From: Patescibacteria group bacterium
GTDB lineage: Bacteria > Patescibacteriota > Saccharimonadia > Saccharimonadales > 2-12-FULL-41-12
DNA: 64,000 nt
Assembly: GCA_038064875.1 (NCBI GenBank)
Contig: JBBTSC010000001.1
Location: 507,004 to 571,003 of the forward strand
Direction of reading: 5' to 3'
Part shown: one piece after another, positions 620 through 63,290 of the stretch
Position numbering within the stretch: position 1 is the first letter of the stretch
Layout: every line of letters starts with the position of its first letter
Position numbers and translations under genes: made by a program
Notes under the pieces: model-generated
Seen by the model: only the letters and a program-made list of their open reading frames with translations
Told to the model about the DNA's origin: nothing
Databases searched by the model: none

Positions 620-1198
620 CTATTTGCCCCTCAAGGCTTCTTTAATTCTTTGCTCTGTTGATAGACTCTTGTCGACTTTAGCCAACGCACTTTTGGCGTC
701 TTGGTCGGAAAAACCGAGAGCAACCAATCCTGAAAACGCTTCATCTTTGCTAGATACATAATCGCCGTCCAACATATCGCTAGCAGATACCTTACTGACT
801 AGCCCAACCTTATCTTTAAGCTCTATTACCACTCGCTCTGCCAGCTTCTTGCCAACACCAGGGGCAATCTGGATGAATTTAACATCACCACTCGCTATAG
901 CTAAGCGCAGTTCTTTGATAGAGCCGATACTTAACATGTTAAGTGCCATCTTTGGCCCTACCCCATTAACTTCTATTAACTTTTCGAAGAAGTTCTTGTC
1001 ATCTTGGCCGATAAAACCAAAGAGATCATGACTTTGCTCTCTTATATGCTCATAGATGTAAAGTTTTTGGCTCGCTGAAACTTTTAGCTTCGATCTGTCG
1101 TCATCACTGACAAAAATACCATACCCAACACCCCCAACATCGAGAACGACATAGTCTAAGTTGGTAGATATAATTTTACCCTCTAAATATGCAATCAT
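620..1198 (-). CDS. ruvA: Holliday junction DNA helicase subunit RuvA
   Basis: 192 aa ORF with MIAYLEGKI N-terminus and HhH-type GVGPKMA / APGVGKKLAERV motifs. Conserved ruvC-ruvA-ruvB order. TATAAT (1211-1206) lies 7 nt upstream of the ATG. Confidence 0.9.
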   Translation of the reverse strand: MIAYLEGKIISTNLDYVVLDVGGVGYGIFVSDDDRSKLKVSASQKLYIYEHIREQSHDLFGFIGQDDKNFFEKLIEVNGVGPKMALNMLSIGSIKELRLAIASGDVKFIQIAPGVGKKLAERVVIELKDKVGLVSKVSASDMLDGDYVSSKDEAFSGLVALGFSDQDAKSALAKVDKSLSTEQRIKEALRGK

Positions 1199-1226
1199 TG
1201 GCTATATTATACCCTGATAGGGTGAT

Positions 1227-1706
1227 CTAGGCGAATCTTGCTGTCATGCTATGAGCAATAGCGCATGCCAAAGCATCTGCGCAGTCATCTGGTTCAGGTA
1301 TAGATTTTAACTTTAGAATCACTTTTACCATTTCTTGAACTTGTTTTTTATCGGCTTTGCCATAGCCTGTCACTGACTGCTTTATCTGAAGTGGTGTGTA
1401 CTCAAAAATATCTAAGCCATTCTGTTTGCCCAGCAACAATACGACTCCTCTAGCCTGAGAAACACTCATAGCAGTCGTAACGTTACGCATGAAGAAGAGT
1501 TTTTCTACTGCCATGACGTGAGGCTTATGCGTTTTTATGATTTCCTCAAGCTCAGAGCTGATAGTTACAAGGCGACTAGCCTCTTCACTATTTGCGGGTG
1601 TAGTTATAACCCCTCCATCAACTAACTGGACCTTACCGTCATCTCTATAGTCAATAACCCCGAATCCGAGACGACCTGTGCCCGGATCAATTCCAATTAT
1701 CCTCAT
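1227..1706 (-). CDS. ruvC: Crossover junction endodeoxyribonuclease RuvC
   Basis: 159 aa ORF with the RuvC signature N-terminus MRIIGIDPGTGRLGFGVID. The 4 nt overlap (1703-1706) with the upstream ORF suggests coupling. Confidence 0.9.
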   Translation of the reverse strand: MRIIGIDPGTGRLGFGVIDYRDDGKVQLVDGGVITTPANSEEASRLVTISSELEEIIKTHKPHVMAVEKLFFMRNVTTAMSVSQARGVVLLLGKQNGLDIFEYTPLQIKQSVTGYGKADKKQVQEMVKVILKLKSIPEPDDCADALACAIAHSMTARFA

Positions 1707-2485
1707 GAGTTCTTCTTTGCTTTTATGATATCCACAATTTGCTGATGTACATGCCCATTACTTGCTACAAAACCATTTATAGGTTGGTTGTATTTCTGCT
1801 GATTACCATCCAAGTCTGTAACTTTACCACCCGCTTCTGTGACAATCAAGGAAATAGCTGCTCCATCTTCTGGCTTGGGATTATTAAATATCGTAGCCGT
1901 GAACTCACCAGAAGCAACCAATGCAGTAGGCAATATCACAGACCATAGAGACGTTATATGAGCCCCTAGACTTACTAATTCTGATTCAACGGGTTGCATC
2001 TCTAAAACTTTATTTTTTAGTCCGCCTTCCATATCAATAAGCGCATTCTCTAAAGTATTCTTGCTTGAAACTGATATTTGATCTCCGTTCATAAAAGCAC
2101 CATCACCTTTTGATGCAGAAAACAATCTGTTCTGGTAGGGATCGTAGACAATCCCTACTATACTCTCGCCTTTTTTTGTCAAAGCTAAAGAGAACGTAGA
2201 GATTGGTAGACCATGCGAGAATGGAACAGTCCCATCAACAGGATCAACCACCCAGGTATATTCTGAATCTGATACTTTACTCTCTTCTTCGCCCAGTACC
2301 CCATGCTCAGGATACATCTTTGCTATCTCCTCTATTACAAGCTTGTTCACTGCCAGATCAGTCTCCGTGACAGGAGTATTATCTGACTTCCAATTCTTAT
2401 TCATCCCTGATGCAAAATTCTGTCTTATAAGAGCACCTGATTTTAGCGCTAAATCTTTAGCAAAATTGAGATAATCATCATGCAT
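1703..2485 (-). CDS. Inositol monophosphatase family protein
   Basis: 260 aa ORF with the IMPase motifs VLGEEE and WVVDPVDGT. Confidence 0.8.
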   Translation of the reverse strand: MHDDYLNFAKDLALKSGALIRQNFASGMNKNWKSDNTPVTETDLAVNKLVIEEIAKMYPEHGVLGEEESKVSDSEYTWVVDPVDGTVPFSHGLPISTFSLALTKKGESIVGIVYDPYQNRLFSASKGDGAFMNGDQISVSSKNTLENALIDMEGGLKNKVLEMQPVESELVSLGAHITSLWSVILPTALVASGEFTATIFNNPKPEDGAAISLIVTEAGGKVTDLDGNQQKYNQPINGFVASNGHVHQQIVDIIKAKKNS

Positions 2486-3204: not shown

Positions 3205-4680
3205 CTAAAGTAGCTCCTTTTCTAGATCAATTATATCACGACGATTCTTGGTTTTATGATACAGAATCAAACAAATAACAATAATTAGTGCATAAGCAAA
3301 GATCATTTCAGTCAAACTTATTTTTGTATCAATCAACGCTCCTGGAATTTGAGCAAATAAATTCGCCACGTCTAGTATCGCAACCAGCATGATTTTTGCA
3401 GGCAAAGCTAAGACTCCGGCCACATGTGGGGATAACATACCTGCTATACCGGCGATAAAGCTGGACAACATGGCAAAAGGCACCAACGGAACCACAATAA
3501 TATTTACCATAAACCCTACCAAAGAAACACGTCCGAATATAAACATTATTATCGGCAATGTGAGAATCTGCGCAGAAAATGTATCGCTAATTAGCTGTTT
3601 AAGTGTGAGTAATTTGTCGCTTTTAGAGTACCTGAGGATCAATAGTGGCGAAAGCACCAGCACTCCAAAAAACGCCAAGAATGACAAATACCAACCTATA
3701 TCGAACCAGACGTATATTGGGTTCCAAATGCCTGTGATAAATGCTGTCAGACCGATTAGCAAGACAGGCTTCATAGAACGACCAACATACCATGTCAGCA
3801 GAGACAGCGCACTAACTATAGATGCCCTGACTATTGAAGCGCTGAACCCAGTGATCAACAAAAATCCGACTATCAACCCGCCAGACAGGAGTGTGGCTTG
3901 GTACTTTGATGTTTTTTCTAAAAGTCTCCGCGCAAAAAGCACTAAGATAGTCAGGTTATAACCCGACACCGCTACAATGTGTACCAGTCCAACTTTCTTA
4001 AAATTTTCGTCTACGTTGTCTGGCAATGTACTTCTCTGGCCTATCAGCAAACCCAGAGCAAAAGATGCAGCTGGTTCTGGCAAAGCATTATAAACTCCAG
4101 CAACAAAATTTTGCCTAATCTTCTCTACGAACGAGTCTGTTCTGTTAATCACTTCTATTTGAGCAAAACTGATTCTGCCGACTTTTCCCCCTCTCGTCTG
4201 ATAAATTTTGCCCTCTACCTGAACAATATCTCCTCTAGTTACAGCAGGAGTGCCAAATCCGGAAATGGTCATCTTGCCCGGCAGATACAGATCCTCTTCT
4301 GGAATATATACATCACCAACCTCGAACTCTAATTGTTTTTTATCATCGTAGACACCGTCACTTCTAGCCTCGGCAACAATGACAACTTTCTTCTCATAAA
4401 TCCGGTCATACGCCGAAAAACTCTGCTGGAACTGATCTCCACGCCAAAGACCCAAGCTCAGACCAAACAAAATCATAAAGATCATCCACGCGATATTTCG
4501 ACTGCGAATAGTTAACATGCTAAGTAATCCAAATATCAAGACTAACTCAAGTTGTAATGGCTGAAAATTCTTTGCCAAAAATAGTCCAGCAACAGCCAAA
4601 AAACAGAAGCATGTCAGCCCCGTCGTCCAATTAAAATGCATAGCGAGAACACGCTTAAGCTTTTTCATTCTTGGATACAT
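3205..4680 (-). CDS. comEC: ComEC/Rec2-family DNA internalisation channel (short form, no metallo-beta-lactamase domain)
   Basis: 491 aa polytopic membrane ORF with the competence-domain motif GLVHIVAVSGYNLTIL. The start is uncertain: ATG 4680, or the fifth codon ATG 4668, which lies 10 nt downstream of a TATAAT (4684-4679). Confidence 0.75.
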   Translation of the reverse strand: MYPRMKKLKRVLAMHFNWTTGLTCFCFLAVAGLFLAKNFQPLQLELVLIFGLLSMLTIRSRNIAWMIFMILFGLSLGLWRGDQFQQSFSAYDRIYEKKVVIVAEARSDGVYDDKKQLEFEVGDVYIPEEDLYLPGKMTISGFGTPAVTRGDIVQVEGKIYQTRGGKVGRISFAQIEVINRTDSFVEKIRQNFVAGVYNALPEPAASFALGLLIGQRSTLPDNVDENFKKVGLVHIVAVSGYNLTILVLFARRLLEKTSKYQATLLSGGLIVGFLLITGFSASIVRASIVSALSLLTWYVGRSMKPVLLIGLTAFITGIWNPIYVWFDIGWYLSFLAFFGVLVLSPLLILRYSKSDKLLTLKQLISDTFSAQILTLPIIMFIFGRVSLVGFMVNIIVVPLVPFAMLSSFIAGIAGMLSPHVAGVLALPAKIMLVAILDVANLFAQIPGALIDTKISLTEMIFAYALIIVICLILYHKTKNRRDIIDLEKELL

Positions 4681-4694
4681 TATATACTAGGTAT

Positions 4695-5642
4695 ATGGAT
4701 GAAATTGCACGATATTTTGAAAACTTAGGACTCGAGCCTTCACACACTCAAATGGCACCGATTAAAGGTGGCCATATGTCATATAGCAAATCTGTATACA
4801 TCAATGATAGCGAAAAAATCTTTGTAAAGAAATTTGTTGCTAGGGCCGACTTGACCAAACTACAATCTGCCCATGCTCTTGCCTATCTACATAAAGAAAA
4901 CAAGATAATAAACCAACTCTCTGGCCTGGACATCTCTCCAGAATTCTCTGAGCTGATATCATCAAACTCTTTGATCCTACCTGCATATACTGAAGAGTCT
5001 GGTTGGTTCTGGGAGGCGCCTGAGGATACTGAGTTACTGGAAAACTACATCTCTTCTATCCTGAGTGTACTGTCTGAAAAAGAGAGTGCCACTGTTGATT
5101 TTGAAAATGTTGATATCCTGCCGAGTCAACAAACCCTCGAGTCTAGTGGCTGGCAAAAATTAACAAAACTACCGGATCTCAAGTCTCAAATAACAGACAA
5201 GGTTGCACAGTTCAAATCAGCCTTGCACCCAATTACGGTTAACTCTGGTCATGATTTGGTAGAGAATATAGGAGATCTCATTAACCAATACCGGCCAGTC
5301 AGTAGCAAAGAATTAACAGCTTTTTCTCATCACGATGCTCGGCAACACAACATTGCATGGCACCCTGATCTTGGGGTTAGGATAGTCGATTGGAGCTGGG
5401 CAGGAATGGGCTTGCCAAATTCTGATACAACTATGTTCCTAGTAGACCTAACAAAGAGCGGGATAGATGTTTCTGAATATCTAGATCGATATTTTAATCC
5501 AGATCATGCCCACATACTTATTGGTTTTTGGCTAGCTAGAGCGCTGGAACCACCGAGCAAGTCTAACCCTGAAGTCCGCTTGCACCAACTAGCCTCCGCC
5601 ATCACCGCATACAACCTCATTAAATATAAAAACCCCACTTAG
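4695..5642 (+). CDS. Phosphotransferase (APH/choline-kinase-like) family protein
   Basis: Contains the kinase-like catalytic loop HHDARQHNIAW followed by IVDWSWAG. The track ORF begins at TTG 4671. I prefer ATG 4695 because TATACT (4683-4688) lies exactly 6 nt upstream. Confidence 0.6.
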   Translation: MDEIARYFENLGLEPSHTQMAPIKGGHMSYSKSVYINDSEKIFVKKFVARADLTKLQSAHALAYLHKENKIINQLSGLDISPEFSELISSNSLILPAYTEESGWFWEAPEDTELLENYISSILSVLSEKESATVDFENVDILPSQQTLESSGWQKLTKLPDLKSQITDKVAQFKSALHPITVNSGHDLVENIGDLINQYRPVSSKELTAFSHHDARQHNIAWHPDLGVRIVDWSWAGMGLPNSDTTMFLVDLTKSGIDVSEYLDRYFNPDHAHILIGFWLARALEPPSKSNPEVRLHQLASAITAYNLIKYKNPT

Positions 5643-7971: not shown

Positions 7972-8342
7972 TAACTATCCACACAGTGTCTATTATTATC
8001 TTCGAGTTTGGTACTAACGCTAAAAGTTCTTGATGAGCCTTCTTCGCCATTACATTTTTTTGCAAGATGCACAGCTATAACTCCTTTTTCATCTTTTTCA
8101 GTCACCAGAAATTTATACTTCTGTTTTATCTCTTGCTCAAACTCGTCTGATGGCAAAAAACTCTTGTCCTCTATCTGCTCTTTGGCTGGTAACTTTCCCC
8201 TATTGTTTGATTGATAGACCGCGATAGCGGACACGGTAGCAGAGACAGCATTCTTATGCGTCGTATCGCCCTGCTTTCTGCTGAGGCTAGGTGTCGCCAA
8301 TACAGGAAAGAGTAGTGCAAAAAATGCCAAAATTATAATCAT
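7971..8342 (-). CDS. Hypothetical secreted/anchored protein inside the dnaK-dnaJ interval
   Basis: 123 aa ORF with a hydrophobic N-terminus (MIIILAFFALLFPVLATP). Its stop is coupled to the dnaJ ATG. TATAAT (8355-8350) lies 7 nt upstream of its ATG. Confidence 0.6.
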   Translation of the reverse strand: MIIILAFFALLFPVLATPSLSRKQGDTTHKNAVSATVSAIAVYQSNNRGKLPAKEQIEDKSFLPSDEFEQEIKQKYKFLVTEKDEKGVIAVHLAKKCNGEEGSSRTFSVSTKLEDNNRHCVDS

Positions 8343-8405
8343 AACTTATATTATACCTGTTCTTGTTCTCTTAAACTCTTGTGTAGCCATACTATATTCT
8401 AACTT

Positions 8406-8849: not shown

Positions 8850-10763
8850 TTATTTTTCTTTTTTGTCGTCTTTTTCGTCTTCTACTACTTCGCCTTCTAT
8901 TGGTTCGTCTTTTTCAGATTTCTTTTCATCGCCTTTGACGTCCGCTTCTTCTTTTGCAGCTTCTTCATACATTTTGGCGCCGATAGGCATGATCACATCG
9001 TTCAATTTCTTTAGTGCTGTCTCAATCGCTTCTTTATCTGCCGTTTCATCAGATTGAACTTTTTTAGCTGACTCTACTGCGTCGTCAATAGCCTTTTGGT
9101 CATCCTCAGAAATCTTTTCTTTGTTGTCGTTCTTTAGTTTCTCAGCTTGGTAAACTGCGTTTTCTAGAGCGTTTCTGACCTCGATAACTTCTCTTTTAGC
9201 TTTGTCCTCGTCTGCGTGAGCTTCTGCTTCTTTTTGAGCTTTTTCGACGTCTTCTTTAGACAAATTACCACTGTTTTGGATTGTGATACTTTGTTCTTTG
9301 CCAGAACCTTTGTCCTTGGCAGTTACGTTCAGAATTCCGTTGGCATCTAGGTTAAAAATAACTTCAATCTGCGGAACACCACGTGGTGCAGGCGGGATAC
9401 CATCTAGCACAAATCGTCCAAGTGATTTGTTATCCGCAACCATACCACGCTCTCCCTGAACCACGTGGATTTCTACCTGTGGCTGGTTATCAGCAGCGGT
9501 GGAGAATACCTCGCTCTTGCTTGTTGGGATAGTTGTGTTTCTCTCGATCAATTTTGTAGCCACACCGCCTAGAGTCTCAATACCGAGGCTTAGCGGAGTA
9601 ACATCTAGTAGCAATACGTCCTTAACATCACCTGCCAACACTCCACCTTGGATAGCAGCACCGACAGCAACAACTTCGTCTGGGTTGACTCCTTGTTTTG
9701 GATCTTTGCCAAAAATACTTTTGACCTTTTCGATCACGGCTGGCATACGAGTCATGCCACCTACTAAAATTACTTCGTTGATATCGCTAGCTTTTAGCTT
9801 GGCGTCTTTCAGAGCTTTCTCTACTGGACTTGCAGTTCCATCGATAAGATCAGCAACTAGCTCGACCAATTTTGCACGAGTTAGCTTGTACTCAAAGTGC
9901 TTTGGCCCATCTGCATCAGCAGTCAAGAACGGCAAGTTAATATCTGCAACTTCAGTGGTAGAGAGCTCTTTTTTAGCCTTTTCTGCCTCTTCTTTAAGTC
10001 GTTGCATAGCAGCCTTGTCGTCTTTAACATCAATACCTGATTCTTTCTTGAACTCATCGACAAAGTGGTTGACGATCCTAAGGTCAAAGTCCTCACCACC
10101 AAGGTGTGTGTCACCATTTGTGCTCAGTACTTCAAAAACGCCGTCACCAAGTTGAAGGATAGATACGTCGAATGTCCCACCACCAAGATCGAACACAGCG
10201 ATCTTTTCTTCCTTGCCTTTGTCTAGTCCGTACGCCAGTGCCGCAGCAGTTGGCTCGTTGATAATCCTCTTTACTTCCAAGCCCGCGATCTTACCTGCGT
10301 CTTTGGTAGCTTGACGTTGAGAGTCATCGAAATATGCAGGAACGGTGATAACCGCCTCTGTTACTGGCTCGCCGAGAAATGCTTCTGCATCAGCCTTTAA
10401 CTTGCTAAGTATCATTGCACTGACTTCTTCTGGACTGTAACCTTTACCAGACATTTCTACTTGTACAGCTGTGCCCTTTTTCTCAATCTTAAATGGCATC
10501 AGCTTGATATCTTTTTGAACTTCCTTGTCGCTAAATTTACGACCAATAAGTCTCTTAACACCAAATATTGTGTTAGTAGCATTAGTCACACGCTGACGGT
10601 TGGCTACCTGTCCGACAAGTCGCTCGGCGTTTTTGTTGATAGCTACAACACTCGGTGTAGTACGGTTCCCCTCGCTGTTAGCGATAATCTCTGGCTTACC
10701 AGATTGCATCACAGCCATAGCACTGTTAGTTGTACCAAGGTCTATTCCTATAATTTTTCCCAC
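8850..10763 (-). CDS. dnaK: Molecular chaperone DnaK (Hsp70)
   Basis: 637 aa ORF with [17 protein letters not shown] and an acidic C-terminal tail. GTG start at 10763 with the AAGAGGAGA SD (10779-10771). Confidence 0.97.
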
Positions 10764-10804
10764 TGTTTTTTCTCCTCTTAATATCGTATTTTGTTACTAT
10801 TATT

Positions 10805-10831
10805 TTAGCACTCATGTGCTTATAGTGCCAG
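10805..10831 (-). promoter_or_regulatory. Degenerate second CIRCE-like inverted repeat over the predicted dnaK transcription start
   Basis: The minus strand reads CTGGCACTA-N9-GAGTGCTAA. The right arm is perfect and the left arm matches 6/9 of the consensus TTAGCACTC-N9-GAGTGCTAA. It lies immediately after the -10. Confidence 0.45.
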
Positions 10832-10858
10832 TATAATAAACTAGCACTCTCATGTCAA
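10830..10858 (-). promoter_or_regulatory. dnaK promoter TTGACA-17-TATACT
   Basis: -35 TTGACA is the complement of 10858-10853. -10 TATACT is the complement of 10835-10830. The spacer is 17 nt. Confidence 0.7.
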
Positions 10859-10867
10859 GAGTGCTAA
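10841..10867 (-). promoter_or_regulatory. CIRCE operator (HrcA binding site) upstream of dnaK
   Basis: The minus strand reads TTAGCACTC-TTGACATGA-GAGTGCTAG, which matches 17/18 of the CIRCE consensus. The spacer contains the -35 hexamer. Confidence 0.85.
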
Positions 10868-12383: not shown

Positions 12384-13082
12384 CTACTCATAAATAGCTT
12401 CCTCTAGGGATTCGCCTGTCCTTTTGACTAAATTCATTACGCCTTTGTAGCTCTGCCGTGTTGGACCGAGTACACCTATGTAGCTGTTGTCGCTATATGG
12501 ACTTCTGAATTTGCTGATGATCAAACTACAGCCACTGTTACGACCAATTGGGTTTTCTTGTCCGATAAATACGCTGAGTGGTTCGTTTGGCTTTGCCTCA
12601 TGTAGCCATGGCTCTAAATTATCTAGTAAGCTGGCGACTTCGCGGACAGCTCCCCCGCTAGAAAACTCTGGTTGAGCAAAAAGATTTGTCAGCCCTGACA
12701 TATACAGTTGGTTGCCGATAGTCGCAAGGCCTAGGTTATGTGTCATTTCTACAAGCGTATCGACTGCACTGCGTATAGTTCGCTCAGGGGCATTGTTGTC
12801 GCTAACTCGTGCAGAAAGCGCACGCTCTGTCCTTTTATCTACTGAAGTTTCGTCACTAAGTGTGTTGACATAATATCTATAGCCTTTGTCTGTAGGGATA
12901 CGACCGGCACTGGTATGAGGTTGTGTGATGAGGCCAAGTCTCTCCAGCTCTGCCATTTCTGCGCGAATCGTCGCACTAGATACACCAAAGACCTTAGCCA
13001 AAAGACTTGAGCCGACTGGACTTGCTACTTCTGCATATTGTTCAATTATCGATTTTAGGATTAGTTCTTGTCTAGGACTCAT
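12384..13082 (-). CDS. hrcA: Heat-inducible transcription repressor HrcA (compact 232 aa form)
   Basis: N-terminal winged-helix region (GSSLLAKVFGVSSATIRAEMAELERLGLITQPHTSAGRIPTDKGYRYY) and C-terminal IGVLGPTRQSYKGVMNLV motif. A CIRCE lies upstream. Confidence 0.85.
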   Translation of the reverse strand: MSPRQELILKSIIEQYAEVASPVGSSLLAKVFGVSSATIRAEMAELERLGLITQPHTSAGRIPTDKGYRYYVNTLSDETSVDKRTERALSARVSDNNAPERTIRSAVDTLVEMTHNLGLATIGNQLYMSGLTNLFAQPEFSSGGAVREVASLLDNLEPWLHEAKPNEPLSVFIGQENPIGRNSGCSLIISKFRSPYSDNSYIGVLGPTRQSYKGVMNLVKRTGESLEEAIYE

Positions 13083-13091
13083 GATGAGCTA

Positions 13092-13120
13092 ATTATATAA
13101 ATTTAGCAGTCTGAGGTCAA
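13092..13120 (-). promoter_or_regulatory. hrcA promoter TTGACC-17-TATAAT, near-leaderless
   Basis: -35 is the complement of 13120-13115 and sits inside the CIRCE spacer. -10 is the complement of 13097-13092. The ATG at 13082 is 9 nt after the -10. Confidence 0.65.
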
Positions 13121-13129
13121 GAGTGCTAG
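13103..13129 (-). promoter_or_regulatory. CIRCE operator upstream of hrcA
   Basis: The minus strand reads CTAGCACTC-TTGACCTCA-GACTGCTAA, which matches 16/18 of the consensus. It overlaps the stop codon of the upstream ORF at 13126-13128. Confidence 0.8.
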
Positions 13130-13602
13130 ATGATGTTAGGCATGTCTTTAAGGCGAGCACGTACAATTTCCTGAGCTTCAACCATATCTCGCTCTGGAAC
13201 TTTGGGAAGATCAGGATACATATCAACATAATGAGAAAGTCTCAGTATTGGATCACCATATATAACAAGACCTCCTTTAAATAAGTTGAGTGAAGAATCT
13301 AGCGGAGTTATCTCTAAAGCTTGAGTATTGCTATTTGCATTGACTATTGCTGTACCCGCGAGAGTCATCACATGAGCATATGCTTCATACGGATTAGGGT
13401 GGACCAAAAAACCCGTTTCTCCTTCAAGTTCTTCTAAAATAGTCGCGATAAAGAATGCCCTCGGAACACAGTTTGCAGTCCCTGTATCAAGAGCTTCGAG
13501 CGGATTAACCTGCCTTTCATCAAAATGAGGCAATGCAGTTGCACAAAAATATCCAGCTTTCTCCATCGCAGGAGTAACCAAATCAGCTGATCTAGCATTC
13601 AT
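13126..13602 (-). CDS. Hypothetical protein (possible Cys/His hydrolase-like core)
   Basis: 158 aa ORF. The motif GTANCVPRAFFIATIL followed by YAHVMT resembles a transglutaminase-like Cys...His arrangement, but this is weak. Confidence 0.5.
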   Translation of the reverse strand: MNARSADLVTPAMEKAGYFCATALPHFDERQVNPLEALDTGTANCVPRAFFIATILEELEGETGFLVHPNPYEAYAHVMTLAGTAIVNANSNTQALEITPLDSSLNLFKGGLVIYGDPILRLSHYVDMYPDLPKVPERDMVEAQEIVRARLKDMPNII

Positions 13603-13610
13603 AATATAAT

Positions 13611-13638
13611 ATTATACAAGGATTTAACTAAAAGTCAA
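13611..13638 (-). promoter_or_regulatory. Promoter TTGACT-16-TATAAT for ORF 13126-13602
   Basis: -35 is the complement of 13638-13633 and -10 is the complement of 13616-13611. The ATG at 13602 is 8 nt after the -10. Confidence 0.65.
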
Positions 13639-13963: not shown

Positions 13964-14662
13964 CTAGAGGTTTTGCAGGATTTGTTCTGCGATTTCTCTA
14001 CCCTGAGCCTGATAATCAGGATCTGATGGCCCACCTTTTGCTAATCTATCGACTGCATGTACTGCACGAGATAGTTCGTCATTTACGACAAATTGAAAAT
14101 AATCTTTACTGAGTGCCAGTTCTATTTCCTCACGGGCTATCCTACGACGTCTCGCCAAGTCTTCTTGATCAATGCCATGTTTGTATCTGTTAAGTAGTCT
14201 AGTTTGCCATATCTCGTAGTCAGGCGGAACAACAAAAACTACTTTAATATTTTGAGAAATATTCCAGTATTCTTGAACACCTTGCACTTCTATGTCAGTG
14301 ATGGCTATTTTGTTGTCGTCACGCGCCTTTTTGATCTCTGACGCACTGGTGCCATAGACGTTCTGACCATAAAGTTTGGCTTCAACAAACTCCTGATTTT
14401 TTACCATATCTATAACTCGCTGATTGTCTACAAAATGATATTCAACCCCATCCTGCTCCATCACACCATAGTTCTCACGAGGACGGCGGGTTGTGTGCGA
14501 AATTATCCGGTGATAATCTCCTGACTTTAAAAGCTCATTAATAATGGTGTTCTTGCCAGCACCAGAAATACCAACGACAAAAAGTAATTTGTGTGATCGA
14601 ACGATCTCGATTACTTCCTCACCAGGTTTGTAATCAACCAAAAGTTTTTTCAACTCTTCCAT
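13964..14662 (-). CDS. gmk: Guanylate kinase-like protein
   Basis: P-loop GISGAGKNT and ISHTTRRPRENYG..GVEYHFV motifs. TATAAT (14675-14670) lies 7 nt upstream of the ATG. Confidence 0.8.
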   Translation of the reverse strand: MEELKKLLVDYKPGEEVIEIVRSHKLLFVVGISGAGKNTIINELLKSGDYHRIISHTTRRPRENYGVMEQDGVEYHFVDNQRVIDMVKNQEFVEAKLYGQNVYGTSASEIKKARDDNKIAITDIEVQGVQEYWNISQNIKVVFVVPPDYEIWQTRLLNRYKHGIDQEDLARRRRIAREEIELALSKDYFQFVVNDELSRAVHAVDRLAKGGPSDPDYQAQGREIAEQILQNL

Positions 14663-14677
14663 TTGTTTAATTATACA

Positions 14678-18043: not shown

Positions 18044-18086
18044 TAACAATATTATACTCTTCTCAGGAGTATTTTTACAGATCAAT

Positions 18087-18114: not shown

Positions 18115-18121
18115 AAAAACA

Positions 18122-30170: not shown

Positions 30171-30176
30171 ACGCGA

Positions 30177-46061: not shown

Positions 46062-46085
46062 AAGACATAATGCTATAATTAGATA

Positions 46086-52084: not shown

Positions 52085-52843
52085 TCAGTCCCTTAACGCC
52101 TTTCCTGTCAGGTCAATAAAAACATCTTCCAAATTTGCCTGCTCTACCTGTTGTTCTTTCTTGAATCCTTTTTTCAATAAAGCCTTGATAAGATTTTTTG
52201 GCGTATCAAGTGCCACTATCTCGCCTTCATCCATGACAGCAACCCTGTCACACAACAGCTCTGCTTCATCCATATAATGAGTTGTCATAATCACTGTCAC
52301 ACCACGGTCGCGTACTTCGCGGATCAGATCCCAGAGATTTCGCCGAGCTTGTGGATCTAGACCAGTAGTTGGTTCATCCAGAAAGAAGACTTTCGGTCCG
52401 TGCACTAAAGCGGCAGCAATTGAAAATCTCTGTCTCTGTCCACCTGAAAGGTTCTCAACATAGCTGTTTGCCTTATCGAGTAGTTGCAAATCGTCTAAGA
52501 ATTTCTTTGGATCGACCTTCTCTCCGTAAGTAGATGCAAAAAATTCTATGAGCTCAGTAAGCTTTGTCTTTTCTTCAAACGAAGGCGTCTGTGGCTGAAC
52601 GCCTATGAGGGTTTTTATTTCATCGGGGGAGCTTGCAACGTCTATCCCGTTTAGAGATGCCGTACCACCATCTATCGGACGCAATGTTTCTATCATCTCA
52701 AGAGTAGTTGTTTTACCCGCACCGTTCGGCCCTAAAATACCAAAGATCTCGCCGGCTTTTACTTCAAAACTGATTCCTTTGACAACTTTTTTGCCGTCGT
52801 ATTTCTTAACTAAATTATCTATTTTTACTATCGGTTTTGACAT
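52085..52843 (-). CDS. ABC transporter ATP-binding protein (DrrA-like)
   Basis: Walker A GPNGAGKTT, signature LSGGQRQR and Walker B FFLDEPTTGLD. TAGTAT (52857-52852) lies 8 nt upstream of the ATG. Confidence 0.9.
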   Translation of the reverse strand: MSKPIVKIDNLVKKYDGKKVVKGISFEVKAGEIFGILGPNGAGKTTTLEMIETLRPIDGGTASLNGIDVASSPDEIKTLIGVQPQTPSFEEKTKLTELIEFFASTYGEKVDPKKFLDDLQLLDKANSYVENLSGGQRQRFSIAAALVHGPKVFFLDEPTTGLDPQARRNLWDLIREVRDRGVTVIMTTHYMDEAELLCDRVAVMDEGEIVALDTPKNLIKALLKKGFKKEQQVEQANLEDVFIDLTGKALRD

Positions 52844-52888
52844 ATTAATAGATACTATTCTATCAGGTTTGATCTGCTATAAAAAATC

Positions 52889-53050
52889 TTAGGCTGGATG
52901 CACGCCAAGGTCGGTCAGGTCAAATCCATAATCATCAAGTTTACTAAGGACATAGTCACTATCACCCACTTTATATTCATGAGCTAGAGCCTGTAAAAAC
53001 GCCTCAACTCTCTCGAATAATTCACCATAAAGTTCATAGACTGCTACCAT
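52889..53050 (-). CDS. Unlisted 53 aa ORF with strong ribosome-binding site
   Basis: Own translation: MVAVYELYGELFERVEAFLQALAHEYKVGDSDYVLSKLDDYGFDLTDLGVHPA. AAAGGAGGG lies 8 nt upstream of the ATG. It is below the 60 aa track cutoff. Confidence 0.55.
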   Translation of the reverse strand: MVAVYELYGELFERVEAFLQALAHEYKVGDSDYVLSKLDDYGFDLTDLGVHPA

Positions 53051-53144
53051 AACTATTGCCCTCCTTTAGCACTTGTTACTATAGCTAAAATTGGGCCTAG
53101 AATCTGTTAGCGTTATTACAAAGAATTAGTGAATTAACTAACTG

Positions 53145-54195: not shown

Positions 54196-54393
54196 TTATT
54201 TGAAGCTAACTGTCAAAAATCCGTTTCGTGGATTTTCGTTTACTTTTCCACCACTTGGTAGTTCAGTAGCTGTGTCTTTTCGCTCGTCTTTACTAAAGTA
54301 GTAAATTCGTTGCTTCTTGCCACCACGAAGTACAACTTCCTTGGTGTTTAGGTAATAAGTAATACCTTTTGAGTTTTTGTGACTGTAAGCCAT
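54196..54393 (-). CDS. Hypothetical small basic protein
   Basis: 65 aa ORF with an AGGGGAG SD and its own terminator. Confidence 0.6.
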   Translation of the reverse strand: MAYSHKNSKGITYYLNTKEVVLRGGKKQRIYYFSKDERKDTATELPSGGKVNENPRNGFLTVSFK

Positions 54394-54506
54394 TATTGTT
54401 GCTCCCCTCTTATTGCTTAATAATGTATAACTACATTAACTCTAATCACTAACACTTGTCAACTTCTTATTGTAATTTTTGCGTCACCTACAGTCAGATG
54501 AAGGTC

Positions 54507-54535: not shown

Positions 54536-54577
54536 AAGACCCATACACTAATTAAAGTAATTAACTAGAGGTGGTAG

Positions 54578-55243
54578 ATGGATTTTACAAATCAGCCAAA
54601 CAAGCAAGCGCCCCAGAGACCAAGTACTCTAGGGACAAATCCGGATTATAGCTCGGAACCAGAACAATCTAACAAGAAAGGTAACCAAAAAGTGAAGAGA
54701 CACATAGACAAGATAACAGCCGCAAAGATTCCATTCTTACTGCTAACTTTTGGTATCGTAGTACTAATCGTTGCACTTGTATTTAAGATTTCTATCTTCT
54801 CAGATAATTCAGAGGCAAAAGCAGTTAACAAATCTGCTTACCAAGCCGTGTTCTTAAACAACAACCAAGTTTACTTTGGCAAATTGACTGATGTCAACAA
54901 GGGCTCTGTAACTCTAACTGACATCTACTACATCCAGCTTGATGGCAAACAACAAGACACATCACAAGCTCAAAGTAGCTCAAACAACATCACTCTTGTA
55001 AAACTAGGTTGTGAGATTCATGGACCACAAGACAAGATGGTTGTTAACAAATCTCAAGTTCTCTTCTGGGAGAATTTGAAGGACGATGGTCAGGTTGTAA
55101 AGACTATCAAGGCTAACCAAGCTAAAGGTGCTCAGAACTGTGATACACAGCAATCAAATTCTGACACTCAGAAGAGCGCTAACCCTACTACGCCTACAAC
55201 TACCACACCAAGCACAACAACTCCAACGACTACATCTCCGTAG
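54578..55243 (+). CDS. Hypothetical membrane-anchored protein with Thr/Pro-rich tail
   Basis: 221 aa ORF with a single TM (IPFLLLTFGIVVLIVALVF) and the C-terminal PTTPTTTTPSTTTPTTTSP. Confidence 0.6.
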   Translation: MDFTNQPNKQAPQRPSTLGTNPDYSSEPEQSNKKGNQKVKRHIDKITAAKIPFLLLTFGIVVLIVALVFKISIFSDNSEAKAVNKSAYQAVFLNNNQVYFGKLTDVNKGSVTLTDIYYIQLDGKQQDTSQAQSSSNNITLVKLGCEIHGPQDKMVVNKSQVLFWENLKDDGQVVKTIKANQAKGAQNCDTQQSNSDTQKSANPTTPTTTTPSTTTPTTTSP

Positions 55244-56233: not shown

Positions 56234-56850
56234 TAGAATTTGTCTTCCATCCGGCGTACTAACAATCTGTCTATGATTATTCGCAAAATCCAAAGAACAT
56301 AGGCGGACACAGCTAGGACTAAACTTATCCCAGCGAGGTCAGGTGACCATTTAGGGCTGATGAAATCGAATTTGTAAAATTCTGTCGGAATATCTCTAGG
56401 TTTGGTCGCATTAGCAGAAACATACTCTTGAATACAGGTAACTTTTGCCTGGTTAAATCCTGCTGAAGGGAACTGTGCGTTACAGACATTCGTCGCTGTA
56501 ACATTAACTTGGTTGTTTGTTTGTTTAACTCTCTCTGTCTCCTCAGCAAGTAGCTTTTCGTATTGGGTCTTCAGCTGTATTGGAGGCTTTATAGTAGAAC
56601 CACTACTCAGATCAGTATTCATATGAGCGTAGACGAATTCTCGCAAATTACGAAGTGCTCCCTCGATATCGCCATTGTTTTGATCTGCAACCTCAACTTG
56701 CTTGCGAAGCTCTAACATCTTCAGGTTATTTTGACGCAAACTATAACCACTGATAAGTGTCATTACAACGGCGAAAATCAAAATAAACTCTGGTCTGATA
56801 ATTTTCAGTCTCTTGTGCCACCTATAAAAACTTTTTATTTTCTTTGTCAT
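56233..56850 (-). CDS. Hypothetical bitopic membrane protein
   Basis: 205 aa ORF with N- and C-terminal TM segments. TGaTATAAT (56866-56858) lies 7 nt upstream of the ATG. Confidence 0.55.
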   Translation of the reverse strand: MTKKIKSFYRWHKRLKIIRPEFILIFAVVMTLISGYSLRQNNLKMLELRKQVEVADQNNGDIEGALRNLREFVYAHMNTDLSSGSTIKPPIQLKTQYEKLLAEETERVKQTNNQVNVTATNVCNAQFPSAGFNQAKVTCIQEYVSANATKPRDIPTEFYKFDFISPKWSPDLAGISLVLAVSAYVLWILRIIIDRLLVRRMEDKF

Positions 56851-56857
56851 AAGCGTA

Positions 56858-56866
56858 ATTATATCA
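56858..56866 (-). promoter_or_regulatory. Extended -10 TGaTATAAT (leaderless-type)
   Basis: Complement of 56866-56858. The ATG is at 56850. Confidence 0.6.
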
Positions 56867-56876
56867 CTACGATAAG

Positions 56877-56885
56877 TGTTAAAAT
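56877..56885 (+). promoter_or_regulatory. Extended -10 TGtTAAAAT (leaderless-type) for murC
   Basis: Located at 56877-56885. The ATG at 56892 begins 7 nt after the hexamer. Confidence 0.55.
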
Positions 56886-56891
56886 ATAGTC

Positions 56892-58169
56892 ATGCATATA
56901 TTTTTCAGTGGAATTGGCGGAACAGGCATTGGGCCACTAGCTTTAATCGCCCACCAGGCAGGATACACCGTTTCTGGATCTGACAAACAGAATTCTGCAT
57001 ATATAGATTATCTGCGGAATCAAGGACTGGAAAATATTCACATAGGGCAATCAGCTGAGGATATAGAGAAAGTACATCGGGCCCAGCCTATAGATTGGCT
57101 GGTGCACTCATCAGCCGTTAGCATTGAGAACCCAAATCACCCTGAGCTTATTTTTGCTCAAAAGAATAATATCAAGACCACCAAGCGTGACGAGTTAACC
57201 AACCATATTCTCAAAGAAAAACATTTAAAACTCATAGCGATTGCCGGGACTCACGGCAAAACCACCACGACAGCGATGGTTATCTGGCTTTTTAAAGAAC
57301 TAAATATCTCAATAAGCTACTCAGTGGGGGCAAAGATATCCTTCGGTGATATGGGGCATTTTGACCCTGCAAGCGAATACTTTGTCTATGAATGTGACGA
57401 GTACGACCGAAACTTTTTGGCTTTCAAGCCACACCTCAGTCTAATAACCGGTATCGCCCACGACCATCATGATATTTACCCAACTGAAGCGGACTACAAT
57501 AATGCCTTTAGAGATTTCTTAGATCAAAGCGAACAAAAAATACTCTGGGGCGCTGACCAGAACAAGCTATCTCTGCCAGATTCAGATAAATTGCACTCTC
57601 TAGGGAGCATTTTAGATGGAATAACCTTGGCAGGCGAAGTAAATAGACTAGATGCTAGTCTAGCAATTCAAGCTGTTGGTGATCTCACCAAAGTACCAAC
57701 AGCGGATCTAGTAAAAATCATCAACCGATTTCCAGGAGTCTCTAGAAGATTCGAAAAAATTGCTGACAACATCTACAGCGACTATGCCCACACTCCAGAG
57801 AAAATTGCTGGGTGCCTAGAAATGGCTAAAGAACTTTCAAATAAAGTAGTGGTGGTCTACGAACCGCTGACCAACAAAAGACAATATAGTATTAGAAATA
57901 CTTACACTGATCTATTTAAGAATGTTAAGAAATTATATTGGGTGCCTAGCTATTTAACTCGTGAAGATCCTGATCAACATGTGCTAACTCCGACTGAATT
58001 GATAGAAAACATGGGCAATAAAGAAATTGCCGAACCTGCAGAATTGAACCCTCAACTACTAGAAAGCATAAAAAAACACCAGTCGGATGGTGATTTAGTT
58101 ATCTGTATTTCTGGTGGTGGCGGAGGAAGCCTCGACGAATGGCTCCGGCAACAATTTATAGCTACTTAA
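56892..58169 (+). CDS. murC: UDP-N-acetylmuramate--L-alanine ligase (MurC-like Mur ligase)
   Basis: N-terminal Rossmann motif IFFSGIGGTGIGPLALIAHQAGYTVSGSD and the ATP-binding loop AGTHGKTTTTAM. Confidence 0.8.
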   Translation: MHIFFSGIGGTGIGPLALIAHQAGYTVSGSDKQNSAYIDYLRNQGLENIHIGQSAEDIEKVHRAQPIDWLVHSSAVSIENPNHPELIFAQKNNIKTTKRDELTNHILKEKHLKLIAIAGTHGKTTTTAMVIWLFKELNISISYSVGAKISFGDMGHFDPASEYFVYECDEYDRNFLAFKPHLSLITGIAHDHHDIYPTEADYNNAFRDFLDQSEQKILWGADQNKLSLPDSDKLHSLGSILDGITLAGEVNRLDASLAIQAVGDLTKVPTADLVKIINRFPGVSRRFEKIADNIYSDYAHTPEKIAGCLEMAKELSNKVVVVYEPLTNKRQYSIRNTYTDLFKNVKKLYWVPSYLTREDPDQHVLTPTELIENMGNKEIAEPAELNPQLLESIKKHQSDGDLVICISGGGGGSLDEWLRQQFIAT

Positions 58170-58186: not shown

Positions 58187-58531
58187 TTAACGGTTATCAC
58201 CGGAGCCTTTGGTTTGGTTTCTTTTTTTGCGACTGTGAACTTTTTCTAAGTTTTTATCTGCAATATCATCTAGTGACAGGCCTAAATAGCAAGCCATGGC
58301 ATTGACATACCAGAGCACATCACCAAGCTCTTTCGCTATTTCGTCAATATCCTCAGGTGTTATCTTTCCGTTTTTGTCACGAAGAATTTTCTTAAACTTT
58401 TCAGCAACCTCTCCGGACTCTCCTACCAGGCCGAGAAGTTTGCTCATAAATGCATGGGAATCTATCGCCACAGTTTTGCCGTCAAAAGAATCAGTTGCTA
58501 TTGCTTGTTTTTGATATTCGTCAAAGGTCAA
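58187..58531 (-). CDS. MazG-like nucleotide pyrophosphohydrolase
   Basis: 114 aa ORF with LVGESGEVAEKFKK and ELGDVLWYV motifs. TTG start preceded by GGAG. Confidence 0.75.
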   Translation of the reverse strand: MTFDEYQKQAIATDSFDGKTVAIDSHAFMSKLLGLVGESGEVAEKFKKILRDKNGKITPEDIDEIAKELGDVLWYVNAMACYLGLSLDDIADKNLEKVHSRKKRNQTKGSGDNR

Positions 58532-58582
58532 AGATGCTCCAAATCGCTTACGTTTATAGATTTACTACGATATAATCATTAT

Positions 58583-59455
58583 ATGGTTGAGGAGATGTTT
58601 ACGCAAATCAGCAATTACTATGATCTGGCGTATTTAAACACGAAGAACTGGCTTCATATTCATGGTCCGGATATTATCATAATCCTCATTGTTTCTTGGT
58701 TGACCCATCTATTTGCTAGCAAATTTGTTTCAAGCTTACTGCACCATACTGTACGAGCAGATCTCTACCCTTCACGCGTAGATAGAGAAAGACGCCTTAA
58801 GACTATCGAGGGACTGGTAGGCGTGGTGCTACGAATTGTGGTCTACGGAGTAGCTTTTGTTCTGATCATAGGTGAATTTGGCATCAATACTGGACCTTTG
58901 ATTGCCAGTGCAGGTGTTCTGGGCATCGCCCTTGGTTTTGGGGCACAGAGCTTGATCAAAGATTTTACCAGTGGCATCTTTATTATTATCGATAACCAAT
59001 ATCGAGTCGGAGACTTTGTCACTATTGATAAAGTATCTGGCACTGTCGAAGCAGTAACTATTAGAACAACTATCTTGCGAGACCTTGATGGTAGCCGTCA
59101 TCATATTGCCAACGGATCAATACTCGTAGCCACCAACCAGACGGTTGACTTCGGCGGTATAAGCGAGGATATCCTGATAGGCAAAACCTCGAACATTGAT
59201 AAGGTAAGAGACGCTGTTAACAAAGTTGGTCAGGAGATGCTACAAGACAAAGTTATTGGACCAAAAATCAAAGAAGCACCATATTTTGATCGGGTGCTAA
59301 AATTTGATAAGAACGGAATTTTTATACGTGTCCTTGGTACAACCGGCGCAAATGACCAGATAGAAGTTGTTGGCAATCTCTATGAGAGATTGCTCACCGA
59401 ATTTAGGCATCTGAAGATAGAACTCCCTGATACTAAGATCTCTGTTGCTAAATAA
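58583..59455 (+). CDS. mscS: Small-conductance mechanosensitive channel (MscS family)
   Basis: GIALGFGAQSLIKDFTSGIFIIIDNQYRVGDFV. I prefer ATG 58583, 6 nt after the TATAAT at 58571-58576. The track start at 58454 overlaps the mazG-like gene. Confidence 0.85.
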   Translation: MVEEMFTQISNYYDLAYLNTKNWLHIHGPDIIIILIVSWLTHLFASKFVSSLLHHTVRADLYPSRVDRERRLKTIEGLVGVVLRIVVYGVAFVLIIGEFGINTGPLIASAGVLGIALGFGAQSLIKDFTSGIFIIIDNQYRVGDFVTIDKVSGTVEAVTIRTTILRDLDGSRHHIANGSILVATNQTVDFGGISEDILIGKTSNIDKVRDAVNKVGQEMLQDKVIGPKIKEAPYFDRVLKFDKNGIFIRVLGTTGANDQIEVVGNLYERLLTEFRHLKIELPDTKISVAK

Positions 59456-59746
59456 TTATTGTTGCTGAAGCTGTATATAGATTGCCAGCCCAACAAGCAA
59501 CGCGCAGATAAAACAAGCTATGAGGATTACGCCAATATTTGACGAGGGCTTGTTATTTGGAACTTTTTTGGGCTGATCTGGTTTTTTGTCTTTTGAATCT
59601 TTGGGTTTTTGATCAGTCGTACCCGGCTTCTTTACATCCATAACAGGTTGTTGAGCGAGTTGAGGAGCGGGCTGGACTGAAGGTTGAGCTTTAGGAACAT
59701 CGTTAACTGGTGGCTTCGCTATCGTTGGCTTGATGTCTTCCTGCAT
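59456..59746 (-). CDS. Hypothetical Pro/Lys-rich C-tail-anchored protein
   Basis: 96 aa ORF with a C-terminal TM (IGVILIACFICALLVGLAIYI). TGgTAGAAT (59761-59753) lies 6 nt upstream of the ATG. Confidence 0.5.
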   Translation of the reverse strand: MQEDIKPTIAKPPVNDVPKAQPSVQPAPQLAQQPVMDVKKPGTTDQKPKDSKDKKPDQPKKVPNNKPSSNIGVILIACFICALLVGLAIYIQLQQQ

Positions 59747-59802
59747 AGAATCATTCTACCATAAGCATTTGGTTCTAGAATTTAGGGATTTGTCCTACCC
59801 AA

Positions 59803-61905: not shown

Positions 61906-61959
61906 GGCTTTGTCCGTGAATAAAGCATAACAAATTTGACGCTATTTATCTAGAGCCTG

Positions 61960-63270
61960 CTAAGGTGTTAGACGATTAATATCTCTTGGAAATAATGTGG
62001 CTTCTTTGACGTTGCTGAGACCTACAATTTTCTGGGTCAATCTCTCAAGACCCATACCAAACCCACCATGTGGAGGCATCCCATATTTCATAGCGCTCAA
62101 AAGTGGAGCAAAACCAGGATCAGTTGGATCACCCTTTGCTAGCTCTTTAAGTTGTTTCAAGACTATTTCGTACTTGTTCTCGCGCATACTTCCAGTGGTA
62201 ATCTCAACCCCCCTAAAGAGTAGGTCGATTCGATCCGCCAACTTTGGATCTTTATCATTTTTTTTGTGATAGAATTTCATCTCGTCTGCTGGCCATTCAC
62301 TTACAAAAACTGCTTCTGATTTAAGATTTTTCTTTGCATAGTCACAGATCCAACGCTCTTCATCAGGACGAAGATCTTTCTCCCCAACAGAATTCTCTCC
62401 GGTAGCTTTTGAATATTTCTCATGAATTTCTTCAAGCGAAAGCACTGGGATTTTGGGTGGCAAGAGTGGCTTAGTTGCATTCCACTTTTTTAGCTGGATC
62501 TCATGCTTATCCCACACACCATCAACAACTCTGCCCAAAAGATCACTCAAGAGTTGCTCTAAGTCTTCTAGATCAATAAATCCTAGTTCCGCGTCAATTG
62601 AAGTGTACTCTGTCATATGACGACTTGTGGCACTTGGCTCAGCTCTATAAACTGGAGCTATCTCATAAACTCTCTCAAAAGCACCAACCATCATTTGCTT
62701 ATAAAACTGTGGGCTTTGCGCTAAGGTTGCTGTTTTGCCAAAGTAATCCAATGTGAAAACTTCAGCTCCACCCTCAGTAGCTTCTGCCAAAAATTTAGGA
62801 GTATGTATTTCTGTAAATTCTCTACCCTCAAAAAAAGATCTAAGTGACGAGCAGATTGTAGCCTGAACATCAAAGACAGCTCTCTCTTGCAGATTTCTTA
62901 GCCCGACTACTCTATGTTCGAAGAGCGTATCTAGATTTTCGGATTTGTGTTGAAGTGGCTTGTCAATTTCAATTGGAGGTTCGTCTGTGACAGGTACAAG
63001 TACTTCGATTTCAGGATCGTGAATCTCTGCACCACCTGGAGCTCTTTTATCACTTATCAGCTCACCCTTTACTGATAGAACGCTACCGATCTGTAGTCCC
63101 CGAAGCTTTTCAATCTCGTTCTTATCCTGCACCAACACCTGAGTCAACCCTGACCTATCACGCACATTTATAAAATTAAGCCCGCCGAGCAGTCGCTTTT
63201 TGTGAAGCCAGCCTTCTATAGTGATCGTTTTGCCAACATGTTTTTCCAAGTCTTTTGCAAGTGTTCTCAT
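61960..63270 (-). CDS. aspS: Aspartate--tRNA ligase, archaeal/type-2 form (possibly non-discriminating)
   Basis: 436 aa ORF with an OB-fold N-terminus, LAQSPQFYKQ, motif 2 YRAEPSATSRHMTEY and motif 3 GGFGMGLERL. TAGAAT (63282-63277) lies 6 nt upstream of the ATG. Confidence 0.85.
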   Translation of the reverse strand: MRTLAKDLEKHVGKTITIEGWLHKKRLLGGLNFINVRDRSGLTQVLVQDKNEIEKLRGLQIGSVLSVKGELISDKRAPGGAEIHDPEIEVLVPVTDEPPIEIDKPLQHKSENLDTLFEHRVVGLRNLQERAVFDVQATICSSLRSFFEGREFTEIHTPKFLAEATEGGAEVFTLDYFGKTATLAQSPQFYKQMMVGAFERVYEIAPVYRAEPSATSRHMTEYTSIDAELGFIDLEDLEQLLSDLLGRVVDGVWDKHEIQLKKWNATKPLLPPKIPVLSLEEIHEKYSKATGENSVGEKDLRPDEERWICDYAKKNLKSEAVFVSEWPADEMKFYHKKNDKDPKLADRIDLLFRGVEITTGSMRENKYEIVLKQLKELAKGDPTDPGFAPLLSAMKYGMPPHGGFGMGLERLTQKIVGLSNVKEATLFPRDINRLTP

Positions 63271-63290
63271 CAGAATATTCTACACTTTTT

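Follow-up and report, generated by a model that had tools for sequence, protein, structure and literature searches.

The DNA analyzed here, referred to below as the window, is a stretch of 64,000 nucleotides (nt) from contig JBBTSC010000001.1 of assembly GCA_038064875.1 (positions 507,004 to 571,003). It comes from a groundwater metagenome, has a GC content of 41%, and belongs to the Saccharimonadales (Saccharibacteria/TM7; class Saccharimonadia), part of the Candidate Phyla Radiation (CPR). Many of its genes carry a hexamer resembling the -10 element of a bacterial promoter immediately upstream of the start codon, and the number of nucleotides separating the two, which we call the gap, is typically 6-8. 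Among 66 genes, 27 are of this leaderless type (gap of at most 9) and 5 are near-leaderless (gap 10-11), while 19 are led by a Shine-Dalgarno (SD) sequence and 15 have neither signal, about half of the latter overlapping or being coupled to another gene. For the third to a half of the genes whose -10 box is 6-8 bases from the start codon, the mRNA should begin at the AUG, and with no SD leader, ribosomes would have to load on the 5'-terminal start codon. We consider it highly probable that the boxes are sigma-70 extended -10 promoters producing leaderless (5'-AUG) mRNAs, which coexist with SD-led and coupled genes. This reading builds on the observed geometry, statistics, promoter-type features, conservation, and context dependence of the boxes.

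In the following, coordinates enclose box and start codon, and genes without a name are cited by the first base of their start codon. On the minus strand, the gap is 6 for tilS (21850-21864; a weak TAAGAT, ATG 21852), 28087 (28085-28099; TATAAT), 30170 (30168-30182; TAGACA-16-TGaTATAAT), 45392 (45390-45404; a weak TGcTAATAT), a DivIC-like gene (48394-48408; TATAAT, ATG 48396), 59746 (59744-59758; TGgTAGAAT), and the non-discriminating aspS (63268-63282; TAGAAT, ATG 63270). It is 7 for ruvA (1196-1211; ATG 1198), 8342 (8340-8355), gmk (14660-14675; ATG 14662), and murJ (18041-18056; GTG 18043), all with TATAAT, and for 56850 (56848-56863; TGaTATAAT), and 8 for 13602 (13600-13616; TTGACT-16-TATAAT), an EamA transporter gene (24911-24927; TATACT, ATG 24913), and an ABC ATPase gene (52841-52857; TAGTAT, ATG 52843). 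Wider gaps occur at hrcA (13080-13097; TTGACC-17-TATAAT, gap 9, ATG 13082), a comEC-like gene (4666-4684; TATAAT, gap 10, ATG 4668), and ftsH (20974-20993; TATAAT, gap 11, ATG 20976), the last of which would have a short leader. The plus strand has gap-6 sites at 4695 (4683-4697; TATACT), 30264 (30252-30266; TGaTATAAT), a second ABC ATPase gene (30845-30859; TGtTACAAT, ATG 30857), 43542 (43530-43544; TGaTATAAT), 46086 (46074-46088; TGcTATAAT), murC (56880-56894; TGtTAAAAT, ATG 56892), and mscS (58571-58585; TATAAT, ATG 58583), as well as sites with gap 7 at 18122 (18109-18124; TTGCCA-16-TATAAT), gap 9 at 23469 (23454-23471; TGaTATACT), and gap 10 at 22143 (22127-22145; TTTACA-17-TGgTATAAT). 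A first-pass annotation of this DNA had listed 22 such sites and four "near-leaderless" ones, and inspection of the 50 nt upstream of each start found hexamer and gap to be as given at all 26, with exact TATAAT at 15. The DivIC-like site was absent from that list and is added here.

At a GC content of 41%, boxes of this kind might arise by chance from the AT-rich intergenic background or from the stop codons of upstream genes. Indeed, the loose pattern TAnnnT occurs 2645 times in the window, and its gap histogram over all ATGs is flat, so the loose pattern alone is not discriminating; it was rejected as a test in favor of exact boxes, boxes scored with a position weight matrix (PWM), and ATGs that open an open reading frame (ORF). 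The 56 exact TATAAT hexamers on both strands of the window are followed by an ATG at gaps 6, 7, and 8 in 9, 6, and 2 cases, respectively, and in about one case at each other gap. TAnnnT lies at gap 6-8 upstream of 23 of the 66 curated coding-sequence starts, compared to 7.1% of all ATGs (p 6.5e-11), and a PWM match (at least 5.5 bits) lies at gap 5-9 upstream of 15-18 of 61 starts chosen blind to the motif, as longest ORF or first ATG, against 3.1% when every ATG is counted (p 5e-10 to 3e-13).

The same comparison was made in 34 loci of related genomes obtained by a murC scan (one genome per species; MurC identity 54-64%), of which 32 are labeled Candidatus Saccharibacteria, Saccharimonas, or Saccharimonadales and two are titled only "bacterium". 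When the window and these loci are pooled (686 first-ATG starts), the -10 matches number 0 at gap 5, 49 at 6, 40 at 7, 25 at 8, 20 at 9, 13 at 10, and 20 at 11, over a plateau of about 4.2 per position at gaps 12-60 of the same upstream regions (Poisson p 1e-66 for gaps 6-8); the gap distribution of internal in-frame ATGs is flat. The 34 loci without the window have a box at 115 of 635 starts, compared to 1.9% of ATGs (p 6e-73). The same script, run on 150 kb of Escherichia coli K-12, placed a -10 at gap 5-9 before 0 of 133 genes, and the pooled histogram has no excess at gaps 20-28, the archaeal-type spacing. The distance distribution, which the first-pass annotation had put forward as the check on its pattern, thus has a sharp peak at 6-8 nt, and nothing at 5, over a background of about 4, and it effectively refutes chance. 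Measured against several backgrounds, among them the remaining positions of these same upstream regions, the p-values run from 1e-10 to 1e-73; the upstream neighbor is divergent at 11 sites, where an upstream stop codon is therefore not involved in the box; and the conservation among orthologues described below and the empty E. coli control point the same way, leaving chance with a negligible probability. About 5 of the 66 starts would nonetheless be expected to have a TAnnnT by chance, so that TAAGAT at 21852, TAATAT at 45392, and TAGTAT at 52843 are not individually significant, and it is the near-consensus boxes that carry the signal.

The boxes also have the character of promoters. Their consensus is that of the sigma-70 -10 element, with T, A, and final T invariant. 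Across 133 sites, a TGn extension is present in 32%, compared to 7.7% of all -10-like hexamers (p 1.6e-16), and a weak -35 appears as a TTG exactly 17 nt upstream of the box (T 49%, T 44%, G 33%). Of the seven best full promoter matches (TTGACA-N16-18-TATAAT) that an independent consensus scanner returned between 12 and 32 kb, six have their end 6-11 nt ahead of a start codon. At -1, a pyrimidine is present at 84% of the gap-6 sites compared to 61% elsewhere (p 0.001), and the lack of any match at gap 5 sets a hard lower limit of 6 nt, which fits a start site centered 7 bp downstream of the -10, as is the case in 49 bacteria (PMC12641261). Gene context matters as well: of the 20 genes whose upstream neighbor is divergent, 11 have the box; it is common in co-directional spacers of 6-70 nt (13 of 19) and occurs in 5 of 10 longer spacers, whereas only 2 of 16 genes with a co-directional upstream gene at no more than 5 nt have one, compared to 29 of 49 others (p 0.0013). 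The sole SD-like match among the leaderless-type starts of the window is a 4-nt AGGT at 8342. Their start codons are 26 ATG and one GTG; because the SD-led and no-signal classes use ATG in 28 of 34 cases, there is no significant contrast in start codon.

An A/T-rich box close to the start codon and without an SD sequence is also found in the Bacteroidetes (group B), where it serves as a non-SD translation signal on a longer leader rather than as a promoter. The boxes described here are spaced from the start as an SD sequence would be, and some follow directly on co-directional genes, a position likely to be covered by read-through mRNA, both of which would suit such a signal. Group B motifs, however, precede all genes, initial and internal alike, and so cannot be promoters, whereas the present boxes are nearly absent from tightly coupled and SD-led genes, match the exact sigma-70 -10 consensus, come with TGn and with TTG at 17-nt spacing, never occur at gap 5, and in one case (hrcA) underlie an operator, a CIRCE element (controlling inverted repeat of chaperone expression) at 13103-13129 that covers the -35 and the spacer of the promoter. 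We therefore regard a translation signal as very unlikely.

As promoters, the boxes would act as -10 elements for housekeeping sigma-70, about a third of them with TGn and most with a weak -35. RNA polymerase would start at, or 1-4 nt from, the A of the start codon, which at gap 6 is the seventh base after the hexamer, and the resulting mRNAs would open with 5'-AUG and no SD leader. Ribosome loading directly on a 5'-terminal AUG is established in other bacteria. SD-led genes would use the SD on their leader, and tightly coupled genes would use neither signal. A variant of this scheme is that the promoters are real but that most transcripts have leaders of 1-5 nt, making them near-leaderless rather than strictly leaderless. 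About 40% of the sites have gaps of 8-11 nt, and 16 of the 40 gap-7 sites have an A at -1 that is itself a possible start site. The mode is nevertheless gap 6 (49 sites in the pooled set; 14 of 32 in the window), at which the canonical start is the A of the ATG and a pyrimidine at -1 is enriched; furthermore, the start-site choice of RNA polymerase can span 6-9 nt from the -10, and leaders shorter than 6 nt functionally count as leaderless (PMC6028130). We consider this variant unlikely.

The control regions are short. The gmk box sits within the 15-nt spacer to the upstream gene, and the 41-nt intergenic region between 56850 and 56892 holds two complete opposed promoters, that of 56850 standing back-to-back with that of murC. 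Warman et al. reportedly described, in 2021, bidirectional promoters built from symmetric -10 sequences, and the window has comparable arrangements in the back-to-back -10 boxes at 56858-56885, in the overlapping boxes at 4679-4688, where the -10 of the comEC-like gene overlaps that of the divergent 4695 promoter, and in the palindrome TATAATcATTATA at 58571-58583. The difference is that one or both arms are leaderless here, so that a whole divergent control region can be only 26-41 nt long. At the palindrome, a MazG-like gene (58187-58531, minus strand) has a TTG start at 58531 with a GGAG SD, and its likely -10 (TATAAT, minus strand, 58583-58578) shares the A of the mscS start codon and, with the mscS -10, makes up the palindrome; the region 58531-58585 would be a symmetric bidirectional promoter with one leaderless and one leadered arm. 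Another overlap is seen at 24920-24929, where the plus strand reads TTGCCA-16-TATAAT (11/12 match) across the minus-strand EamA promoter. No plus-strand gene lies in the roughly 800 nt downstream, and the match may represent an antisense or divergent start arising from -10 symmetry.

A further alternative concerns the placement of the start codons. If translation began at downstream, SD-preceded codons instead, the boxes would be ordinary leadered promoters, and there is ambiguity of this kind at ftsH (20976 or 20955), the comEC-like gene (4680 or 4668), and the DivIC-like gene (48420 or 48396). Public gene calls, taken from identical proteins on Hainich groundwater metagenome contigs (Hain_H51_01um), favor ATG 4680 for the comEC-like gene (491 amino acids (aa)) and the overlapping ATG 48420 for the DivIC-like gene, and they start ftsH at 20955 (619 aa) rather than 20976, which makes ftsH uncertain as a near-leaderless case. 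In that Hainich assembly, ruvA and murC sit on separate contigs (122,993 nt and 239,460 nt), so the window must derive from an assembly of the same population that is more contiguous. Elsewhere the evidence supports the starts adjacent to the boxes. NCBIfam profiles, with which gene names were checked, confirm murC and mscS as well as the names already given in the first-pass annotation (ruvA, gmk, murJ, tilS, the non-discriminating aspS, dnaK, hrcA, and ftsH), and they align from residues 1-9 (RuvA and DnaK from residue 1, HrcA from 3, MscS from 4, and TilS from 9), showing that the proposed start codons are essentially right. Across 34 species, MurC opens from residue 1 with an unvarying MHIFFSGIGG; three murJ orthologues start with ATG at the residue matching GTG 18043 and have TATAAT or TATACT 8-9 nt upstream; and orthologues of MscS and of the ABC ATPase begin at the same residue as the window proteins. 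The downstream candidate codons of most genes lack an SD. Six starts had been revised on the strength of the pattern, and at least five of these revisions are independently supported: the public calls agree with 4695 (315 aa), 18043 (528 aa), 43542 (84 aa), 58583 (290 aa), and 56233 (317 aa), and 24913 draws support from the boundary of the EamA domain, whose start falls at residue 48 of the long ORF, or residue 2 when counted from 24913. As an explanation of the boxes, mis-assigned starts are extremely unlikely.

The placement of the box is retained among relatives even where its sequence is not. Upstream of murC, TAnnnT lies at gap 6-9 in 29 of 32 distinct orthologous regions, where chance would give about 10% per site (p 1e-25), even though the hexamers themselves vary (TAAAAT, TATGCT, TACCAT, TAGACT, TACACT, among others) and the sequences flanking them cannot be aligned. 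Of the 17 orthologues of the ABC ATPase gene at 52843, 13 show TAnnnT at gap 6-9, eight of them with TGn, and the gmk orthologue of one relative (L008) has a gap-6 TATACT. In more than 10 loci, the orthologous ATG of the DivIC-like gene has TATAAT or TATACT 6-12 nt upstream. In eight of the relatives (L004, L005, L007, L011, L018, L020, L021, and L023) the upstream neighbor of this gene is a divergent tRNA gene, with TATAAT a few nt from the tRNA end; the window gene differs from this arrangement in having a co-directional ORF upstream. Of the 12 aspS orthologues, 7 carry a -10 box with a gap of 6-9, whereas those of L010, L015, L024, and L030 have an SD instead (AAGGAAG, GAGGA, or GAGGAG), so that the same orthologue has switched initiation mode within the Saccharimonadales. 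The orthologues of 56850 were dropped as evidence, their N-termini being too variable for reliable start placement (6 of 20).

Two SD-led genes served as controls. A 65-aa gene (54391-54409, minus strand; GAGGGGAG, ATG 54393) keeps its SD in 26 of 26 orthologues and has a -10 at gap 6-9 in none of the 26, and the gene starting at ATG 54578 (54568-54580, plus strand; GAGGTGG) keeps its SD in 15 of 15 and has a -10 at this distance in 1 of 15. About 25-45 nt upstream of the former, which encodes a basic protein (MAYKH...; window 54394-54470, minus strand) without a Pfam match, about 30 loci (for example L017, L019, and L025) have a strongly conserved element, TATGGTAGGGGTACCATTACTAA. In the window the element reads TTGACA-18-TAATGT, and the -10 of the relatives is TATGGT. 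The simpler and probable reading is that it comprises the -10 and a G-rich discriminator belonging to an SD-dependent promoter with a leader; as an inverted repeat, ATGGTA-N4-TACCAT, it could also be an operator or an RNA hairpin.

The SD sequences quoted in the first-pass annotation were all found as well. They precede ATG 29048 (29033-29050, plus strand; AAGGAGG, spacing 8), ATG 45474 (45462-45476, plus strand; TAGGAGGT, spacing 4), the ATG of a 53-aa ORF at 53050 (53048-53067, minus strand; AAGGAGG, spacing 9), and dnaK (10761-10779, minus strand; AAGAGGAGA, GTG 10763). The window contains no rRNA (four tRNAs only) and the 34 loci have no 16S signature, so neither provided a 16S rRNA 3' end. 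Upstream of dnaK lie two CIRCE elements in tandem (10805-10831 and 10841-10867), and the gene has a leader besides its SD; with the one at hrcA this makes three CIRCE matches in the window, compared to 0.03 expected, which indicates that the heat-shock regulon wiring has been retained in this reduced genome. Among the genes with neither signal, those starting at 13857, 43416, 49019, 25751, 6710, 61905, and 41683 are not tightly coupled and have neither a start-adjacent -10 nor an SD. Some are preceded by long A-rich stretches, such as aaaaaaataaaaagaaatttaaatat before 43416, and the non-coupled members of this group may constitute a third class with leadered, non-SD initiation. Two of the seven belong to neighboring genes: a giant ORF (35501-41683, minus strand; 2043-2060 aa) with Laminin_G_3, fn3, and PhoD_N-type domains, whose start is ambiguous (GTG 41683 or ATG 41632), and an adjoining gene (41851-43416, minus strand) for a CBM60/Big_7/GH16 protein. 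Both products are likely cell-surface proteins.

The closest known counterpart is group C of the GeneMarkS-2 classification, in which a Pribnow box lies 6-8 nt before the starts of first-in-operon genes, a second ribosome-binding-site model covers the rest, and 25-50% of operons are affected; Actinobacteria (90%) and Deinococcus-Thermus (97%) typically belong to it (PMC6028130). The window resembles group C species such as M. tuberculosis, M. smegmatis, and D. deserti in the spacing of the box, in the lack of an SD on leaderless genes, in the coexistence of SD-led genes, and in extent, with 11 of the 20 genes that have a divergent upstream neighbor affected here compared to the 25-50% of operons there. 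It differs in that the host has a highly reduced CPR genome with 41% GC rather than the high-GC genome of an actinobacterium or Deinococcus, and in that its boxes are near-perfect TATAAT, often with TGn, and in many cases sit in 12-45-nt spacers of co-directional arrays. With extended -10 promoters (TGnTATAAT) the boxes share the TGn (32%), the weak or absent -35, and the invariant T, A, and final T; classical promoters of this type, however, drive leadered mRNAs, whereas here the discriminator runs straight into the start codon. Archaea of group D likewise have mRNAs that begin at the start codon and use SD sequences mainly for other genes, but their TATA box is located about 22-26 nt upstream, in contrast to the 6-8 nt peak with a bacterial -10 consensus found here.

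Several observations weigh against leaderless initiation as the full explanation. In contrast to the group C species, the present case is known from sequence, from which we infer both the transcription starts and the mode of ribosome loading. Of the leaderless-type or near-leaderless starts, thirteen are found 6-70 nt downstream of a co-directional gene that lacks an obvious terminator, and read-through mRNAs with internal, SD-less ATGs probably also exist. At gaps of 9-11 nt the leader would measure 2-5 nt instead of being absent, and several of the hexamers are weak. The box rate varies among the related genomes from 0 to 33% of starts under a strict PWM, with the GC-rich ones lowest. Finally, the one Saccharibacteria start-site set that was found, 188 sites from N. 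lyticus TM7x inferred from RNA-seq coverage, has been noted for its variable -10-to-start distance, not for leaderless starts (PMC12641261). On balance, promoter features, conservation, and gene context support the proposal of the first-pass annotation that leaderless mRNAs exist alongside SD-led genes in this genome.

The same annotation knew of no earlier description for this kind of genome, and this stands in part. Full-text literature searches found no paper tying leaderless initiation to Saccharibacteria, TM7, Patescibacteria, or CPR, all matches being unrelated or confined to reference lists, although some Saccharibacteria may earlier have been classified automatically as GeneMarkS-2 group C; the study that used the TM7x start sites, inferred from coverage, does not discuss leaders (PMC12641261), and a TM7x transcriptome preprint contains no start-site, promoter, or untranslated-region analysis. 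The geometry, on the other hand, is the published group C pattern (PMC6028130), so that only the occurrence in the Saccharibacteria lineage appears to be undescribed, geometry and mechanism being already known. As the mechanism itself is established, specialists should find the result useful more than very surprising. Leaderless initiation is well known from mycobacteria and Deinococcus, and in mycobacteria GUG also functions as a 5'-terminal start.

As for gene calling, Saccharibacteria and other CPR genomes are now called almost wholly automatically, and one in which at least a third of starts lack an SD calls for a dual start model; in the window, the longest-ORF start is wrong for six genes. 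The genetic systems of Saccharibacteria currently take as their "promoters" the entire, undefined upstream regions of tuf and rpsJ (PMC10633639), and a recent perspective on the phylum mentions neither promoters nor translation initiation. A TGnTATAAT-N6-ATG unit of 15-40 nt would serve as a minimal, portable expression element.

We see an even chance that the Saccharimonadales, and perhaps the Saccharibacteria or CPR more widely, are an unrecognized major lineage whose transcription-unit starts use leaderless initiation more than any other mode. In such a lineage, the mode would be kept gene by gene over deep divergence, would be interchangeable with SD-led initiation over evolution, as for aspS, and would compress control regions to 15-41 nt, including single-gene promoters inside co-directional arrays. 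A lineage-wide leaderless mode could be linked to the reduced ribosome and translation-factor set of the CPR. In evolutionary terms, the finding would extend the leaderless-rich groups, mostly Actinobacteria and Deinococcus-Thermus, by a lineage with low GC and a reduced genome, and it provides clean examples of one gene switching between SD-led and leaderless initiation.

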